19,666 bases of DNA, from UHGV virus genome UHGV-0176920, one strand, 5' to 3'. Shown here piece by piece: positions 3,630 to 10,934 of this stretch. The position numbers and the translations under genes were made by a program. This DNA comes from a virus. The notes below the pieces were generated by a model that worked only from the letters and a program-made list of their open reading frames with translations, made no database searches and had not been told where the DNA came from. Every line of letters starts with the position of its first letter. Within the stretch, counting starts at the first letter, position 1.

Positions 3630-3907
3630 GTATTCGTATTGAAATTGGCGAGCGTTATGTCGTCACAAATGACCGTTTTCAGTTCATTTTGCAGGAGAGA
3701 AAGACCGCTGAAACCGGGAAGAATGCCGGTAAAGAGTGGCTGGATGTTGTCGGCTATTACCCCAAATTAAACCAGCTCGTTTCCGGTCTGATCCATCACG
3801 ATATTTTGAGCGGTAACGCTGTCTCTTTTGAGGCGCTGAGCTCTCAGGTTGAGCAGCTCGGTCAGCAGTGTCTGACTGCGTTTCTCTGTGCGGGGAAATC
3901 TAAATGA
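3626..3907 (+). CDS. Hypothetical early protein (P2 orf83 position), 93 aa
   Basis: ORF start overlaps the orf82 stop; its stop overlaps ATG 3904 of the next gene (ATGA). Confidence 0.65.
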   Translation: MSIRIEIGERYVVTNDRFQFILQERKTAETGKNAGKEWLDVVGYYPKLNQLVSGLIHHDILSGNAVSFEALSSQVEQLGQQCLTAFLCAGKSK

Positions 3908-4912
3908 TAGTTGATACCCGCTGCCGAGCTGAAAGCTCTATCAATATTATTTCTGTTTCTGGCGGAAAGGATAGCCTTGCTCAATGGCTTGTTGGTATTG
4001 AAAGCGGTGTGCATTTTTTTGCCGGTTTTTGCAGACACCGGGCATGAGCATCCGCAGACAATGGAGTATCTCGATTATCTGGAGAACCGACTCGGGCCGG
4101 TTAAACGGGTTAAAGCTGACTTCTCCCGACAGATTGAAGGTAAGCGCAAGTTTATTGCTGAGAAATGGCCTGTTTCTCTGGTTGAAGAGTGCGGAATGTC
4201 TCCGGGGGAAGCGGCAGAGCGCATCAATTGTGCGCTGGAAATTCTCAAGCCTACTGGTATCCCATTTCTTGATTTGTGCATGTGGAAAGGGCGATTTCCT
4301 TCCACTAAAGCCAGATTTTGCACTTTTGACCTTAAACATGAGCCAGTACGTACTCAGGTCGTGTTACCTGCGCTTAATGAGTTTGATGAGGTAATTAGCT
4401 GGCAGGGGATTCGCGCTCAGGAGTCTCCTGCGCGCGCGGGTCTGCCTGCCTGGGAAGAGGATGCGGACAATACGCCCGGGCTCCATGTATACCGTCCTAT
4501 TCTGAACTGGACGCATGAGGAGGTATTTGCATTTGCAAGACGTCATGGAATTAAACCTAATCCGTTATACCAGCAGGGATGCAGTCGTGTCGGTTGTATG
4601 CCCTGCATCCACGCCAGAAAGTCTGAATTAGCTGAAATTTTTAGTCGCTGGCCGGAAGAGGTTAAGCGTGTTGCGGAATGGGAGCGACTTGTCGCCGCAT
4701 GCTCCAGACGCGGAAATTCTACTTTCTTCCCGTCAACTCATGACCCGCGTCGTGCGGAACGCCGCATTGATATTATTACTGTCGATGCTTACGGAATTGA
4801 GTCTTATCGTGACTGGGCGATGACCACGCGTGGCGGGGCACAGTTTGATTTGCTGGCTTCGGTGAATGATAAGTCAGTTTGCAGTAGTGTCTATGCCGGT
4901 GTATGTGAATGA
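3904..4912 (+). CDS. PAPS reductase / PP-loop ATP-pyrophosphatase family protein (DndC-like), apparently frameshifted near 4014-4030
   Basis: Frame starting at ATG 3904 encodes MIVDTRCRAESSINIISVSGGKDSLAQWLVGIESGVHFF with the PP-loop SGGKDS at 3958-3975, then stops at TGA 4045-4047. The +1 frame (ORF-track 3911..4912) carries the rest of the fold: FADTGHEHPQT, WQGIRAQES..R, LNWTHEEVF, GCSRVGCMPC. Stop overlaps the A start (ATGA). Confidence 0.7.
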
Positions 4913-7194
4913 GTCATTCTTTCCAGGAGCAATACACCTGCGTACCTCCGTCAGCATTTGCTGCAGGCACCGGTAAGGCGTTTACCGGTGCTTATGCATG
5001 GAACGCGCCACGCGAGGCCGTCGGGCGCGAAAGACCCCTTACACGTGACGAGATGCGTCAGGTGCAAGGTGTTTTATCCACGATTAACCGCCTGCCTTAC
5101 TTTTTGCGCTCGCTGTTTACTTCACGCTATGACTACATCCGGCGCAATAAAAGCCCGGTGCACGGGTTTTATTTCCTCACATCTACTTTTCAGCGTCGTT
5201 TATGGCCGCGCATTGAGCGCGTGAATCAGCGCCATGAAATGAACACCGACGCGTCGTTGCTATTTCTGGCAGAGCGTGACCACTATGCGCGCCTGCCTGG
5301 AATGAATGACAAGGAGCTGAAAAAGTTTGCCGCCCGTATCTCATCGCAGCTTTTCATGATGTATGAGGAACTCTGCGATGCATGGGTTGATGCACATGGC
5401 GAAAAAGAATCGCTGTTTACGGATGAGGCGCAGACTCACCTGTATGGTCATGTTGCTGGCGCTGCACGTGCTTTCAATATTTCCCCGCTCTACTGGAAAA
5501 AATACCGTAAAGGACAGATAACCACGAGGCAGGCATATTCTGCCATTGCCCGTCTGTTTAACGATGAGTGGTGGACTCATCAGCTTAAAGGCCAGCGTAT
5601 GCGCTGGCATGAGGCGTTACTGATTGCTGTCGGGGAGGTCAATAAAGACCGTTCTCCTTATGCCAGTAAACATGCCATTCGTGATGTGCGTGCGCGCCGC
5701 CAGGCAAATCTGGAGTTTCTTAAATCGTGTGACCTTGAAAACAGGGAAACCGGCGAACGCATCGACCTTATCAGTAAGGTGATGGGCAGTATTTCTAATC
5801 CTGAAATTCGCCGGATGGAGCTGATGAACACCATTGCCGGTATTGAGCGTTACGCCGCCGCAGAGGGTGATGTGGGGATGTTTATCACGCTGACCGCGCC
5901 GTCAAAGTATCACCCGACACGTCAGGTCGGAAAAGGCGAAAGTAAAACCGTTCAGCTTAATCACGGCTGGAACGATGAGGCATTTAATCCAAAGGATGCG
6001 CAGCGTTATCTCTGCCGTATCTGGAGCCTGATGCGCACGGCATTCAAGGATAATGATTTACAGGTCTACGGTTTGCGAGTCGTCGAGCCACACCACGACG
6101 GAACGCCGCACTGGCATATGATGCTTTTTTGTAATCCACGCCAGCGTAACCAGATTATTGAAATCATGCGTCGCTACGCGCTCAAAGAGGATGGCGACGA
6201 AAGAGGAGCTGCGCGAAACCGTTTTCAGGCAAAACACCTTAACCGGGGCGGTGCTGCAGGGTATATCGCGAAATACATCTCAAAAAACATCGATGGCTAT
6301 GCACTGGATGGTCAGCTCGATAACGATACCGGCAGGCCGCTGAAAGACACTGCCGCGGCTGTTACCGCATGGGCGTCAACGTGGCGCATTCCGCAATTTA
6401 AAACGGTTGGCCTGCCGACAATGGGGGCTTACCGTGAACTACGCAAATTGCCTCGCGGCGTCAGCATTGCTGATGAGTTTGACGAGCGCGTCGAGGCTGC
6501 ACGCGCCGCTGCAGACAGTGGTGATTTTGCGTTGTATATCAGCGCGCAGGGCGGGGCAAATGTCCCGCGCGATTGTCAGACTGTCAGGGTCGCCCGTAGC
6601 CCGTCGGATGACGTTAACGAGTACGAGGAAGAAGTCGAGAGAGTGGTCGGCATTTACGCGCCGCATCTCGGCGCGCGTCATATTCATATCACCAGAACGA
6701 CGGACTGGCGCATTGTTCCGAAAGTGCCGGTCGTTGAGCCTTTGACTTTAAAAAGCGGCATCGCCGCGCCTCGGAGTCCTGTCAATAACTGTGGAAAGCT
6801 CACCGGTGGTGATACTTCGTTACCGGCTCCCACACCTTCTGAGCACGCCGCAGCAGTGCTTAATCTGGTAGATGACGGTGTTATCGAATGGAATGACCCG
6901 GAGGTCGTGAGGGCGCTCAGAGGTGCATTAAAACACGGCCTGAGAAGACCAAACCGTCAGCAAAGAAACGGAAGCCCGTTAAAACCGCATGAAATAGCGC
7001 CATCGGCCAGACTGACCCGGTCTGAACGATTGCAAATCACCCGTATCCGCGTTGACCTTGCTCAGAACGGTATCAGGCCGCAGCGATGGGAGCTTGAGGC
7101 GCTGGCGCGTGGCGCGACCGTAAATTATGACGGGAAAAAATTCACGTATCCGGTCGCTGATGAGTGGTCGGGATTCTGGCATCAATTTGAGTAA
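4909..7194 (+). CDS. A: Replication initiation protein A (rolling-circle nickase, P2 A-like), 761 aa
   Basis: 761-aa ORF of P2 A length at the P2 A position; contains a paired-tyrosine-type segment (…GYIAKYISKNIDGY…) and HxH-like segment (…DGTPHWHMMLF…) typical of rolling-circle initiators. Confidence 0.95.
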   Translation: MSHSFQEQYTCVPPSAFAAGTGKAFTGAYAWNAPREAVGRERPLTRDEMRQVQGVLSTINRLPYFLRSLFTSRYDYIRRNKSPVHGFYFLTSTFQRRLWPRIERVNQRHEMNTDASLLFLAERDHYARLPGMNDKELKKFAARISSQLFMMYEELCDAWVDAHGEKESLFTDEAQTHLYGHVAGAARAFNISPLYWKKYRKGQITTRQAYSAIARLFNDEWWTHQLKGQRMRWHEALLIAVGEVNKDRSPYASKHAIRDVRARRQANLEFLKSCDLENRETGERIDLISKVMGSISNPEIRRMELMNTIAGIERYAAAEGDVGMFITLTAPSKYHPTRQVGKGESKTVQLNHGWNDEAFNPKDAQRYLCRIWSLMRTAFKDNDLQVYGLRVVEPHHDGTPHWHMMLFCNPRQRNQIIEIMRRYALKEDGDERGAARNRFQAKHLNRGGAAGYIAKYISKNIDGYALDGQLDNDTGRPLKDTAAAVTAWASTWRIPQFKTVGLPTMGAYRELRKLPRGVSIADEFDERVEAARAAADSGDFALYISAQGGANVPRDCQTVRVARSPSDDVNEYEEEVERVVGIYAPHLGARHIHITRTTDWRIVPKVPVVEPLTLKSGIAAPRSPVNNCGKLTGGDTSLPAPTPSEHAAAVLNLVDDGVIEWNDPEVVRALRGALKHGLRRPNRQQRNGSPLKPHEIAPSARLTRSERLQITRIRVDLAQNGIRPQRWELEALARGATVNYDGKKFTYPVADEWSGFWHQFE

Positions 7195-7320
7195 GGATCT
7201 CATCTATACAGTATAAGTAGTTTTGACTGTAATTGATTGTTTTTTATATGGTTGCATGCATTAAATCTACGTCAATATCATTATGTTATAATGCATTACT
7301 TAAAAATGTTGGAGATAAAA

Positions 7321-7512
7321 ATGTTAAAGCCTGCAGATGTTGTTTGTTTGAAAAGCGGTGGATTTAAAATGACTGTATCTGACTCTACTGAAACTCATGC
7401 TAAATGTATTTGGCATGATAAAGAAGGAGTTTTGCACGAGGAGTCATTCTCCATTGATTTACTGGAAATAGCAGAGAGTAAAAGTGGTATGCTTTGTCGT
7501 CCACGTAAGTGA
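7321..7512 (+). CDS. Small DUF2158 (YodC-like) family protein, 63 aa (P2 orf91 position)
   Basis: ATG 7321 preceded by GGAG (7311-7314), inside ORF-track ORF 7237..7512 which begins with TTG. Motif LKSGGFKMTV resembles the DUF2158 signature as I recall it. AT-rich. Confidence 0.55.
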   Translation: MLKPADVVCLKSGGFKMTVSDSTETHAKCIWHDKEGVLHEESFSIDLLEIAESKSGMLCRPRK

Positions 7513-7539
7513 ATCATAATAAAATTCACGGGGGAAAGT

Positions 7540-8220
7540 ATGAAACAATACAGCGAATTAGAAAACAATGTTAAGAGATTCATTGTTGAGCATGAAAAAG
7601 GGATTTCTATTGATGATATTCATCATAAGTTCCGGATGAAGGATGGTCAGAATCGCAAGATGGCAGATTATCTTATTGATAATAAAAAGATAATTTTGGA
7701 GATGAAAAGTCTTTTTTCTGACAGGGTCAAGAATGTCAATGATAAACTGAATGAGTTGGTTAAAACTGATAGTTGGCTTGCAAAAAACTGGCATGGTGCT
7801 ATTCATTTAGAAGAGTTGATAAAAAGACACCCAGACTCAAAGCGATTTAGAAATGATATAATGAACTTTGCTTATGAAAATATTAAAACAAAGATAGTTA
7901 AGGAAGCTAATAAGCAAATAAATGCAACAAAGGATGTTTTGGATTTAAATGACTCGATTGGCGGGTTGATTTTGTTAAATGATAATGTCTTTTCACATGA
8001 GTCTAATTATTTGTCAGATGAAATATTATATTTGCTAGGCACAAAGAGATATTCGAGTGTTGAGTTTGTGGTTTATATTGCAAAATTGATTGATAAACAG
8101 GTTGATGTTTGTGTGCTACTTGACAGTCAATCTAAAAATAAAAATTATATTGAATGGTATATGAATAATGTTTTTTTATTGAACTGGGCGTCTTTTAATA
8201 AATATGCAATAAAGATGTAG
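7540..8220 (+). CDS. Hypothetical protein, 226 aa, cargo gene at the P2 tin position; function unknown
   Basis: Clean ORF with GGGGGAAAG-type RBS before ATG 7540, 27 nt downstream of the small ORF (likely co-transcribed). Strongly AT-rich, Lys/Asn-rich protein with no Walker or catalytic signature I can recognise. Confidence 0.7.
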   Translation: MKQYSELENNVKRFIVEHEKGISIDDIHHKFRMKDGQNRKMADYLIDNKKIILEMKSLFSDRVKNVNDKLNELVKTDSWLAKNWHGAIHLEELIKRHPDSKRFRNDIMNFAYENIKTKIVKEANKQINATKDVLDLNDSIGGLILLNDNVFSHESNYLSDEILYLLGTKRYSSVEFVVYIAKLIDKQVDVCVLLDSQSKNKNYIEWYMNNVFLLNWASFNKYAIKM

Positions 8221-8539
8221 TGGTGTGGATGGATATGAAATGAGTCAACCAAGATGCACCTTGGTCAGTAATCTCATGTGAGATACCACATATAACACCA
8301 AAAGTGTCAGGTTGATGGCCATTGTTCACCGTTTACAGCAGATTATGGTCAACGAAAATCTGACGCCTGACGAGCTGGTCGGGTGTGCCGAAATAGTCTG
8401 GGATAATTACGGGCGGTTTAACTATATCGGTCAGTCCAGAGTTGCGCCACCACCACGCAGACGATAGAGAACGCCGCCAGTCGTGAAACTTGTTTTCAGG
8501 CTGGCGGAGTTGAACAACGAGCGAAGTGAGGCGTTAGCA

Positions 8540-9481
8540 TTAAGTTAATTTTAATGAATGGTACTCTATCGAGCTGATTGTAGATGCGATATATTTACGA
8601 TCATTTACAGAGAGTATTGCCGCTAGTAGACGACATACCAGAGCCTGCATTTGTAGCAATATATCGCTACCATATTGACAATCATTGATACTAGAGAAAC
8701 CAAGCGGTTGCCCATTAAAAATGGCTTCATGAAAATTATCATTGCGTATAACTGAAACATTACATTCATCTGTTGCCCATGACGGGATTTTTACACCGTA
8801 ATTTTCGCACATCCAATATACTCTATTTTGATGAGATGGTTTTTTCTCTTTAATGACTTTATCCCTTTCATCCCATGCTATAGCAAAACAGCAATCAAGA
8901 GCCATATAAAGATACTGGAATTTCTCAAAGGAAAGGTATAGTGGGTTATGTGACAGGAATAGGGAGTGTATCACCGCAGCTATTCTTTTAATGGAGCGAT
9001 CATCTTTTTGTTTGTCTTTTATATAGTTAAGTGCTAGCTCTATTACTTCTTTTTCAGAGCATCCAACGAGAATAAAGTCGGTTAACTTAGTGGGCTTGAT
9101 AGTGGTTGCATCAAGAAAACCAGCGTCAGTGGTTGTCAATCTTATACCCTTGAAAAAAGAGAGGCACCACACAACAAAGTTGAGAGTTTCTAACGAGGAT
9201 GTGTTTTTTAATTTTAGTGTGTGCGTTTTGGGCATGCCGAATACTCGGTAACTATAAGGCATTGTGCATGTGTCACCATTAAGGTTATATACCTTTCGAT
9301 TCCCAGGGTATATCCAACCATTAACAACGTTTTTATCATTGTTAATACGTTCCACGTTCTCAATAAGACCGGGTAAAGTACGCAAAGAAAATTGTTCAGT
9401 CTCAATGTTAACTTCTACTGGATAGTATCCAAACTCCGAAATAATCTCATTTGGTTGCTGTTCGTCAACTTCACCTTGCAT
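8540..9481 (-). CDS. Hypothetical protein, 313 aa, cargo gene adjacent to cos; function unknown
   Basis: Minus-strand ORF with GGAG 7 nt upstream of ATG 9481, convergent with the 226-aa gene. AT-rich. Contains one R-N-D-N-F-H string (codons at 8729-8746), a weak Rx4H match to a HEPN-type motif. Confidence 0.7.
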   Translation of the reverse strand: MQGEVDEQQPNEIISEFGYYPVEVNIETEQFSLRTLPGLIENVERINNDKNVVNGWIYPGNRKVYNLNGDTCTMPYSYRVFGMPKTHTLKLKNTSSLETLNFVVWCLSFFKGIRLTTTDAGFLDATTIKPTKLTDFILVGCSEKEVIELALNYIKDKQKDDRSIKRIAAVIHSLFLSHNPLYLSFEKFQYLYMALDCCFAIAWDERDKVIKEKKPSHQNRVYWMCENYGVKIPSWATDECNVSVIRNDNFHEAIFNGQPLGFSSINDCQYGSDILLQMQALVCRLLAAILSVNDRKYIASTISSIEYHSLKLT

Positions 9482-9719
9482 AACTTTCTCCGTTCAAAAA
9501 CAGGCACGATAATTCTCGTAAGCCTATCATGTTCGCAAAGTATCCATACCTGTGGATTTTGTAAATTTAAGTTGATTTGTCATTAAATAAGCCGTTGCAT
9601 GCAACAAGTGAATGTTTTTGCATGCGTCGGGGATGTCCGTTCAGGCTGCGTGCGGTCAGGACTGGTGCGGATCCATAGTATCTATGCAACTGCATTAAAA
9701 CCGCCCCATGAAGCGGGCG

Positions 9720-9738
9720 GGCGAGGCGGGGAAAGCAC
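9720..9738. other. cos site candidate (P2-type 19-nt cohesive end sequence)
   Basis: ggcgaggcggggaaagcac read directly; it matches the P2/P4 cohesive-end sequence as I recall it and sits where cos is expected, between the tin/old-equivalent locus and Q. Confidence 0.5.
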
Positions 9739-9872
9739 TGCGCGCTGGCGGTGGTGCTGATTTTATTTTTTCAGCGTCTCAGCGCGTCGTGATGGCATTT
9801 AGTCGGCCTGCTGGGGCGTTGGTGTGTCTGCGGGGTGTTTTGTGCGGTGGTGAGGGCGTGATGACGGGATGT

Positions 9873-9894
9873 AAAAAAGCCGCCCGCAGGCGGC
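9873..9894 (-). terminator. Rho-independent terminator candidate downstream of Q (minus strand)
   Basis: Plus strand aaaaaa-GCCGCC-cgca-GGCGGC; on the minus strand this is a GC stem-loop followed by TTTTTT, starting 6 nt after the Q stop. Confidence 0.5.
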
Positions 9895-9899
9895 GATGT

Positions 9900-10934
9900 T
9901 CAGCCGTTGTCAGTGTCAAGTGAGTAGTTTTTAAAGCGGATGACCTCCTGACCGAGCCAGTCGTTTATCTCGCGGATCCTGTCCTGTAACGGGATAAGCT
10001 CATTGCGGACAAAGACCTTTGCCACTTTCTCAATATCACCCAGCGACCCGACGTTCTCCGGCTTGCCACCCATCAACTGAAAGGGGATGCGGTGCGCGTC
10101 CAGCAGGTCAGCGGCGCTGGCTTTTTTGATATTAAAAAAATCGTCCTTCGTCGCCACTTCACTGAGGGGGATAATTTTAATGCCGTCGGCTTTCCCCTGT
10201 GGGGCATAGAGAAACAGATTTTTAAAGTTATTGCGGCCTTTCGACTTCACCATGTTTTCGCGAAGCATTTCGATATCGTTGCGATCCTGCACGGCATCGG
10301 TGACGTACATGATGTATCCAGCATGTGCGCCATTTTCGTAATACTTGCGGCGGAACAGCGTGGCCGACTCATTCAGCCAGGCAGAGTTAAGGGCGCTGAG
10401 ATATTCCGGCAGGCCGTACAGCTCCTGATTAATATCCGGCTCCAGCAGGTGAAACACGGAGCCGGACGCGAAGGCTGTCGGCTCGTTGAAGGACGGCACC
10501 CACCAGTAAACATCCTCCTCCACGCCACGGCGGGTATATTTTGCCGGTGAGGTTTCCAGCCTGATAACCTTACCGGTGGTGCTGTAACGCTTTTCCAGAA
10601 ACGCATTACCGAACACCAGAAAATCCAGCACAAAGCGGCTGAAATCCTGCTGGGAAAGCCACGGGTGCGGAATAAACGTTGAAGCCAGAATATTACGTTT
10701 GACGTAAATCGGTGAGCTGTGATGTACGGCAGCACGCAGGCTTTTTGCCAGACCGGTAAAGCTGACCGGTGGCTCATACCATCTGCCGTTACTGATGCAC
10801 TCGACGTAATCCAGAATGTCACGGCGGTCGAGTACCGGCACCGGCTCACCAAAGGTGAATGCCTCCATTTTCGGGGCGCTGGCGGTCATTGTTTTCACCG
10901 CAGGTTGCGGTGTTTTCCCTTTTTTCTTGCTCAT
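9900..10934 (-). CDS. Q: Portal protein (P2 gpQ-like), 344 aa
   Basis: 344-aa ORF (P2 Q length) starting MSKKKGKTPQPAVKTMTASAPKMEAFTFGEP, directly downstream of and start-overlapping the terminase gene on the minus strand. Confidence 0.95.
   Translation of the reverse strand: MSKKKGKTPQPAVKTMTASAPKMEAFTFGEPVPVLDRRDILDYVECISNGRWYEPPVSFTGLAKSLRAAVHHSSPIYVKRNILASTFIPHPWLSQQDFSRFVLDFLVFGNAFLEKRYSTTGKVIRLETSPAKYTRRGVEEDVYWWVPSFNEPTAFASGSVFHLLEPDINQELYGLPEYLSALNSAWLNESATLFRRKYYENGAHAGYIMYVTDAVQDRNDIEMLRENMVKSKGRNNFKNLFLYAPQGKADGIKIIPLSEVATKDDFFNIKKASAADLLDAHRIPFQLMGGKPENVGSLGDIEKVAKVFVRNELIPLQDRIREINDWLGQEVIRFKNYSLDTDNG

Follow-up and report, generated by a model that had tools for sequence, protein, structure and literature searches.

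The window analysed in this study is a stretch of 19,666 nucleotides (nt) of the virus genome UHGV-0176920, and the subject of this report is an AT-rich island (7195-9630) that lies in it between the replication gene A and the cos site of a P2-like prophage. The island carries, in order, a gene for a 63-amino acid (aa) DUF2158 protein (7321-7512, plus strand), ORF226 (7540-8220, plus strand), a backbone-like segment of 258 bp (8280-8537, plus strand) with a 51-aa open reading frame (ORF; 8312-8467, plus strand), and ORF313 (8540-9481, minus strand). The original prediction, made from the sequence alone, had read the island as one candidate undescribed defence module of three unrecognisable ORFs (63, 226 and 313 aa); these ORFs are all present, and the 51-aa ORF had been overlooked. 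The distribution of the genes indicates that the island is two independently assorting modules and not one three-gene system: the DUF2158 gene with ORF226, which has the fold of a PD-(D/E)xK nuclease, and ORF313, a two-domain protein with a probable HEPN domain.

The left border of the hotspot is gene A (4909-7194, plus strand; G+C 0.48-0.60), a 761-aa ORF for the replication endonuclease according to the RefSeq annotation of the identical region. At the right border, direct reading of the sequence gave the 19-mer GGCGAGGCGGGGAAAGCAC (9720-9738, plus strand), which we take to be the cos site (cohesive end) of P2, followed by the portal gene Q (9900-10934, minus strand; ORF list and RefSeq annotation). 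The conserved end (…GCGGGCGGGCGAGGCGGGGAAAGCAC…) is also found beside the hotspot inserts of P2 and P4 that Rousset et al. 2022 cloned (Table S2; PMC9122126). The whole stretch also occurs, with 100% identity, in at least 11 complete E. coli genomes, within a P2-like prophage that adjoins yegR/yegS (RefSeq). The whole island was found in 27 of the 452 matching E. coli genomes, and the remainder share the backbone segment only.

The guanine plus cytosine content (G+C), computed in 300-nt windows, was 0.51-0.60 over 5000-7100, fell to 0.37 at 7100-7399, reached its lowest value of 0.28 at 7850-8149, and stayed at 0.36-0.40 until about 9650, with 0.49-0.57 regained in the 9500-9950 windows. A drop of such magnitude across about 2.4 kb is not a matter of chance. 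The predicted fall after the stop codon of A and the recovery before cos were thus confirmed, and the island is poor in G+C overall (0.28-0.41, against 0.5-0.6 in the flanks); it is not uniformly so, since the value rises to 0.41-0.47 over 8150-8750. The island lies between A and cos/Q, varies among related phages and has an atypical composition; it is cargo that a P2-like prophage acquired horizontally at its gpA-gpQ/cos hotspot. The position at the tin/old hotspot of P2 was therefore correctly assigned, and this gpA-gpQ interval is the main defence hotspot of P2 and a documented anti-phage reservoir (Rousset et al. 2022, PMC9122126; PMC13586616). A 2026 survey in Nucleic Acids Research found that 19% of P2 elements have no identifiable defence genes yet carry unknown genes at the main locus, and P4 candidates alone were put to the test there (PMC13586616). 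An Rfam scan of 7000-10000 gave nothing beyond one sub-threshold snoRNA match, and a repeat search gave short chance pairs only.

The segment at 8280-8537 (G+C 0.41-0.47) is conserved in P2-like phages and divides the cargo into two slots. It showed 85-92% identity to P2, Wphi (gp92), P22H4 and Yersinia P2-like phages, whatever the flanking cargo. The 51-aa ORF within it corresponds to orf92 of Wphi (phrog_11386, E 3.7e-26), with a pairwise ratio of nonsynonymous to synonymous substitution rates (dN/dS) of 0.07-0.43; it bears the odd name 'meiotically up-regulated 80 protein' in RefSeq. The segment may be a recombination anchor for cargo exchange, or may have some separate function. In Wphi and P2, gene A is followed by orf91 (DUF3850), then by the orf92-like segment, variable cargo and finally cos. 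In the window, the DUF2158-ORF226 unit replaces orf91 in the first slot, and ORF313 occupies the second slot, at the tin/old position beside cos and Q. The gpA-cos hotspot is accordingly composed of two slots with independent cargo exchange. Decay or rearrangement of the hotspot is illustrated by the prophage of E. coli 2013C-4830 (L013:2519-3747), where an IS2 insertion separates the orf92-like segment from a 99.7%-identical ORF313 and the annotation gives gene A as truncated.

The DUF2158-ORF226 unit on the plus strand and ORF313 on the minus strand converge, and both are preceded by a Shine-Dalgarno sequence and a promoter-like site. GGAG stands 7 nt 5' of the ATG of the DUF2158 gene, and a GGAG ribosome binding site precedes the ATG of ORF313. 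The sigma-70-like promoter candidates, TTGACT-18-TATGGT for DUF2158-ORF226 (7223-7252, plus strand) and ATGACA-16-CAAAAT for ORF313 (9556-9583, minus strand; pattern only), each had 9/12 matches in a consensus scan, and such candidates are weak evidence, as the region held 14 sites against 9.0 +/- 3.4 in shuffled sequences.

ORF226 was modelled with AlphaFold (pLDDT, the predicted local distance difference test score, 79.9), and the model has a restriction-endonuclease-like alpha/beta fold with a helix-strand-strand core, in which strand 51-57 carries E54-M-K56 and D43 immediately precedes strand 44-46. When 29 relatives (19-64% identity) were aligned, the invariant columns were limited to D43, E54, K56, A123, Q126 and N147. 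Based on the fold, the strand placement and the invariance together, the assignment of ORF226 to the PD-(D/E)xK nucleases (D43, E54, K56) is well supported by the model and the alignment, with the activity itself predicted; the claim that the island had no nuclease signature thus fails for this gene. Weak matches to Pfam REase_DpnII-MboI (PF18742) were obtained for 9 of the 29 relatives (best E 0.0011, below the gathering level); ORF226 itself had no Pfam match, and no match to the PDB by sequence. Some of the longer, distant relatives have an extra Mrr_cat domain or SEC-C motif. A single-sequence search found 26 close relatives only, and 346 were found when 1.84 billion representatives were searched exhaustively with a profile. 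Pairwise dN/dS of ORF226 was 0.09-0.10 at dS 1.2-2.5 and 0.22 for a near-identical copy (locus L016), and, as for all genes of the island, points to purifying selection. A 40%-identical relative in another prophage has a CI-like repressor on one side and a DUF4238 gene on the other, with a BamHI restriction-modification system close by; DUF4238 is a validated defence gene of the P2 hotspot (PMC9122126).

The 63-aa protein, which had been called unrecognisable, matched Pfam DUF2158 (PF09926, E 5.8e-8, above the gathering score) and phrog_3261 (E 4.9e-20), and its pairwise dN/dS was 0.19-0.20. Its gene, the first of the module, is directly upstream of ORF226 in 27/27 of the E. coli genomes having either gene, and also in three Citrobacter-type loci, where the DUF2158 protein is 73-76% identical; two homologues with Citrobacter names led to these loci, a short metagenome contig and a pair of P2-like prophages. 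The two genes are thus strictly co-inherited in P2-like prophages of Enterobacteriaceae. DUF2158 is not universally required, because relatives of ORF226 on Pantoea plasmids and in the other prophage mentioned above occur without it. A literature search gave nothing on the function of DUF2158. As a speculation, it could be a regulator, antitoxin or adaptor of ORF226.

The AlphaFold model of ORF313 (pLDDT 81.4, predicted template modelling score 0.83) consists of a beta-rich N-terminal domain (residues ~10-140) and an all-helical C-terminal domain. A single-sequence search gave 260 homologues, and a profile search gave at least 699 clusters, mainly from Gammaproteobacteria (Enterobacteriaceae, Aeromonas, Acinetobacter, Pseudomonas, Stenotrophomonas, Lysobacter and others) and nearly all 305-335 aa in length; no Pfam annotation was found on the members listed in the second profile search (699 clusters). 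In 46 sequences with 44-78% identity to the query, R246, N247, H251 and E252 were invariant and D248 was conserved in at least 90%. The resulting motif, R246-N-D-N-F-H251-E in ORF313 and R-N-D-x-x-H-E in the family, corresponds to the HEPN-type R-x4-H pattern with a polar residue after the arginine. Such a polar residue is reportedly typical of the HEPN motif as defined by Anantharaman et al. in 2013. The motif was kept in all the E. coli alleles of ORF313 though the surrounding windows were 58-69% identical, and one UniRef cluster among the homologues bears the name 'Apea-like HEPN'. Judging from these residues, the C-terminal domain is probably a HEPN domain with predicted RNase activity, and the N-terminal beta-rich domain is likely a sensor or regulatory domain. 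The absence of a nuclease signature, as claimed for the island, is thus contradicted in ORF313 as well, by an invariant, putative HEPN-type RNxxxH motif.

The alleles of ORF313 linked to near-identical copies of ORF226 are mosaic (window 8540-9481 compared with L016:1647-2588 and L001:1408-2349). The first ~140 codons were 94-100% identical, with dS 0.06 over codons 1-150, whereas dS was 1.07 over codons 151-313 and protein identity there was 58-78% in 45-residue windows, with the catalytic motif kept in both alleles. This pattern implies recombinational swapping of the C-terminal half, with a breakpoint probably close to the domain boundary. The pairwise dN/dS of ORF313 was 0.15-0.27.

Within sequenced phages, ORF313 is confined to P2-like phages, and in the genomic contexts examined it had no conserved partner gene. 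One homologue adjoins Gabija (GajA/GajB) in an island of P. aeruginosa, another shares a Pseudomonas integrase island with genes for TIR-NACHT and HNH proteins, and a third is near a PIN_8 protein in Acinetobacter. Together with the DUF4238 and BamHI neighbours of the ORF226 relative, both families therefore have relatives next to recognised defence genes. In one P. aeruginosa context (L029:6729-6950), the ORF313 homologue is preceded, at a distance of 50 bp, by a 73-aa XRE-type helix-turn-helix (HTH) gene, which may be a regulator or an antitoxin-like partner; there is no such XRE-type gene in the P2 context. A 226-aa gene near a Pseudomonas homologue of ORF313 was compared with ORF226 and was not related to it. 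ORF313 residues ~241-283 (VIRNDNFHEAIFNGQPLGF...) weakly resemble the N-terminus of E. coli NrdB, the ribonucleotide reductase beta subunit (TKNDQLKEPMFFGQPVNV...); with a sequence E of 0.012 and a domain E of ~0.2 against the PDB, the resemblance was treated as chance.

The counts for E. coli were made on 5426 complete genomes. DUF2158 and ORF226 were both present in the same 27 genomes, and ORF313-like genes were present in 99 (about 1.8%), 72 of which had no ORF226. In three loci of the latter kind that were examined, ORF313 again adjoins Q, and the first slot contained DUF3850 and IS2, a DinI-like gene, or ImmA/IrrE and a hypothetical gene. Yersinia phage vB_YpM_46 has orf91, orf92 and a 99.7%-identical ORF313 and no ORF226, and ORF313 without ORF226 also occurs in Salmonella P2-like phages. 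Conversely, the two Citrobacter P2-like prophages have DUF2158 and ORF226 (75-83% identity); the genes that come next are unrelated, and ORF313 is absent. The units are found apart, are convergent and are split by conserved backbone DNA, which argues for two independent modules; the reading of the three ORFs as one module is not supported, given ORF313 alone in E. coli and Yersinia and DUF2158-ORF226 alone in Citrobacter. That they would nevertheless form one integrated multi-gene system, with ORF226 and ORF313 interdependent (for example as two effectors with one sensor), is very unlikely in view of this distribution and of the solitary ORF313 homologues in Pseudomonas, Aeromonas and Acinetobacter, the sole argument for coupling being that ORF226 never occurs without ORF313 in the complete E. 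coli genomes (27/27), across two ORF313 alleles of ~100% and ~82% protein identity.

The locus is not undescribed, as had been supposed. The same locus is present in GenBank AM157369, phage P2-EC67 from ECOR67, where the genes are ORF73, ORF226 and ORF313, all hypothetical. P2-EC67 has the same gene order (small ORF, ORF226, and ORF313 on the opposite strand), with 92.7% identity over the island, 99.1% for ORF226 and 81.2% for ORF313, and it carries a different ORF313 allele in which the C-terminal half is swapped. Table S5A of Rousset et al. 2022 lists 'DUF2158 + hypothetical + hypothetical + hypothetical' (WP_001547483, WP_023136039, WP_032179103), and the tables of validated and additionally tested systems contain 'Putative HEPN' and 'hp + hp + hp', both of which are unrelated to the island proteins (PMC9122126). 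Table S10 of DefensePredictor (Science 2026) gives the ORF313 homologue WP_001161722 (ST131) as 'Predicted novel defense gene' with a mean log-odds of 9.68; the representative of its cluster is WP_001620979, the 99.7%-identical allele of ORF313. According to that study, the validation rate rises with log-odds (PMC13092281). A 311-aa candidate in its Table S8 was considered as ORF313 and was unrelated, and the accessible part of the supplements gave no ECOR67 label, no fragments of the island proteins and no further accessions. A literature text search found no paper matching 'P2-EC67' or the RefSeq/GenBank accessions.

The proteins were also compared with known systems. Scans of the four proteins of the window with Pfam, NCBIfam and PADLOC matched DUF2158 only, and PHROGs gave families of unknown function only. 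The PADLOC check that had been proposed was run with PADLOC-DB v2.0.0 (2023), which we take to cover 3HP, ApeA, the PD-T4/T7/Lambda sets and the PDC candidates; no catalogued system was matched, with no match at E<=1 for the four proteins, and the ORF226 relatives gave scattered single matches (best E 0.0027). No AAA_15, ABC ATPase, TOPRIM or DUF3850 match was found in the island ORFs with Pfam, NCBIfam or PADLOC, and the ORF list confirmed that no gene of the size of Old is present.

P2 Tin and Old occupy the same slot beside cos as ORF313, are expressed from the prophage and exclude other phages (PMC9122126), and Old is, according to a preprint, also a nuclease-based abortive system (bioRxiv 10.64898/2026.07.10.737580). 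The identity of the island proteins with Tin, Old or Orf91 was rejected by BLASTP (E >= 0.2 in a 7-sequence database). Rst_3HP ('hp + hp + hp', Rousset 2022), a validated system, occupies the same hotspot and has been described as three genes that lack recognisable domains (PMC9122126); it was rejected because BLASTP against Hp1, Hp2 and Hp3 gave E >= 0.5 and the sizes differ.

Of the single-protein HEPN systems, HepS of the Salmonella prophage Gifsy-1 is likewise encoded by a prophage, unites sensing with a HEPN nuclease, and is proposed to shield the lysogen through cleavage of RNA (tRNA anticodon loop) (PMC13043305). ORF313 has no detectable sequence similarity to HepS, as judged from the profile search of PDB sequences at E<=10, which gave no HEPN protein; it has an extra N-terminal domain of ~130 residues, and it is carried by myovirus-type P2-like phages whereas HepS is carried by a lambdoid siphovirus. 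The stand-alone defence protein ApeA (Gao_Ape), encoded by one gene, joins an N-terminal domain to a C-terminal Apea-like HEPN domain, a layout like that predicted for ORF313. The Apea-like HEPN and ApeA_NTD1 models of Pfam and the models of PADLOC-DB v2, which presumably include those for ApeA, gave no match in the 46 ORF313 members at E<=1.

ORF226 has the same core fold as the PD-(D/E)xK defence nucleases (PF18742, NucC, Mrr-type Type IV), with D..ExK on adjacent strands, and, like them, is a small stand-alone protein on a mobile element. It differs in that the island has no cognate methyltransferase, cyclic-nucleotide sensor or ATPase, and a conserved DUF2158 partner is not described for the known PD-(D/E)xK defence systems. 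PD-(D/E)xK is the commonest domain in the newly validated E. coli systems of the DefensePredictor study, 13 of which have it (PMC13092281).

Taken together, we consider that the island carries two exclusion modules, a PD-(D/E)xK DNA nuclease unit and a HEPN-type RNase protein, both of which are predicted to be anti-phage, and we give this a probability of roughly 0.6 on the basis of the sequences and models. In the scheme that we infer, including its nuclease activities, substrates, triggers, role for DUF2158 and anti-phage phenotype, both units would be expressed from the prophage and would guard the lysogen against other phages. ORF313, like HepS, ApeA and other single-protein HEPN abortive-infection RNases, would be latent until a phage cue lifts its inhibition, and would then cleave tRNA or other RNA and halt translation. 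ORF226 would be a conditional nuclease that cuts invading or replicating phage DNA. Because no methyltransferase is encoded in the island, it is unlikely to act as a constitutive sequence-specific restriction enzyme; it may be dependent on modification or structure, or may be checked or activated by a partner, for which DUF2158 is the obvious candidate. A bolder statement is that ORF313 represents a new, widespread family of single-protein abortive-infection RNases, with a novel N-terminal sensor that controls a highly divergent HEPN domain and with C-terminal swapping driven by an arms race against phage inhibitors or triggers, and that DUF2158-ORF226 is, independently, a new two-gene system; we offer it tentatively and with some doubt.

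Several observations weigh against the two-module exclusion reading. None of the PADLOC v2, Pfam or NCBIfam models matches ORF226 or ORF313. The locus is absent from the tables of validated and additionally tested systems of Rousset et al. (PMC9122126), and the accessible part of the DefensePredictor tables has no record of the cloning of ORF313 or ORF226. One ORF313 homologue, in Aeromonas, is a lone gene amid housekeeping genes. The constant company of ORF226 and ORF313 in E. coli could reflect functional coupling instead of linkage. The remaining points concern the HEPN assignment and the Pantoea plasmids, and are considered with the alternatives to which they belong.

The first alternative is that ORF313 is not a HEPN RNase, that its R-x4-H is a coincidence, and that it has some different activity or acts through binding or regulation alone. 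No HEPN family was matched at E<=1 by any of the 46 members with Pfam and PADLOC, the ORF313 protein of the window had no HEPN match in NCBIfam, the ORF313 profile retrieved no HEPN chain from the PDB sequences at E<=10, and a Foldseek search of the model against the PDB gave no match at E<=0.001. Over residues 247-264, the very region of the motif, the pLDDT drops below 50. A profile of ORF313 was aligned by hhalign with each of two HEPN sequences from supplementary tables; the probabilities were below 1%, and the result was uninformative. A dense set of invariant polar residues in the N-terminal half (T86, H87, R114, D124 and D135 in the 46 sequences) could form a different active site. Against this stand the invariance of R246, N247, H251 and E252 across such a range of identity, the polar residue after the arginine and the name of the UniRef cluster, so that we regard a non-HEPN ORF313 as rather unlikely.

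The second alternative, that the island is not anti-phage, would make its genes an addiction or toxin-antitoxin-like pair, a lytic-cycle or host-DNA-degrading nuclease, a counter-defence factor or a lysogenic-conversion factor. The small gene upstream of a nuclease resembles the layout of type II toxin-antitoxin systems, and the co-inheritance in E. coli and Citrobacter would suit such a pair; relatives without DUF2158 in Pantoea and the other prophage show that the nuclease is tolerated alone. On the Pantoea plasmids, the ORF226 homologue has the repA region on one side and the relaxase region on the other, with PLDc_2, Macro and PemK genes nearby, a setting typical of maintenance and establishment functions; this location between the replication and transfer regions fits a role in plasmid establishment or exclusion as well as it fits defence, and so also counts against our interpretation. 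A small HTH gene precedes one Pseudomonas homologue of ORF313, but ORF313 has no conserved small partner. P2 completes its life cycle without the DUF2158-ORF226 and ORF313 genes, which counts against this alternative. About a quarter of P2 hotspots have non-defence cargo such as partition systems (PMC9122126); on the other side are the recurrence of both families beside recognised defence genes and the DefensePredictor score for the ORF313 family. We therefore consider a function other than phage exclusion unlikely, and keep the two-module exclusion reading.

Apart from the island, a frameshifted gene of the PAPS-reductase/PP-loop family lies just upstream of gene A (3904-4912, plus strand; PF01507, E 1.3e-31). 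Its true N-terminus (MIVDTRCRAESSINIISVSGGKDS..., with the SGGKDS PP-loop) is in the frame starting at 3892, in which a stop codon occurs soon after a T7 run near 4015, and the remainder is in the 3911 frame. RefSeq marks the gene as 'frameshifted' in the identical prophage too. Possible explanations are a pseudogene, a slippage site, or cargo in the integrase-to-primase hotspot.

The gain from these findings is incremental and not conceptual, since the predicted enzymes belong to the two commonest superfamilies of defence nucleases, the hotspot is well known and machine learning had earlier picked out the ORF313 family. Proteins identical to ORF226 and ORF313 are present on ~800 to >1000 public contigs of E. 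coli and Salmonella, so that the phage susceptibility of clinical lineages may be affected. If the more tentative statement is true, the DUF2158/YodC family would gain its first function, as a regulator or trigger adaptor of a DpnII-like nuclease. If the exclusion reading is confirmed, two uncharacterised families, a HEPN-like single protein and a DUF2158-associated PD-(D/E)xK nuclease, would be added to the anti-phage repertoire of P2-like prophages.

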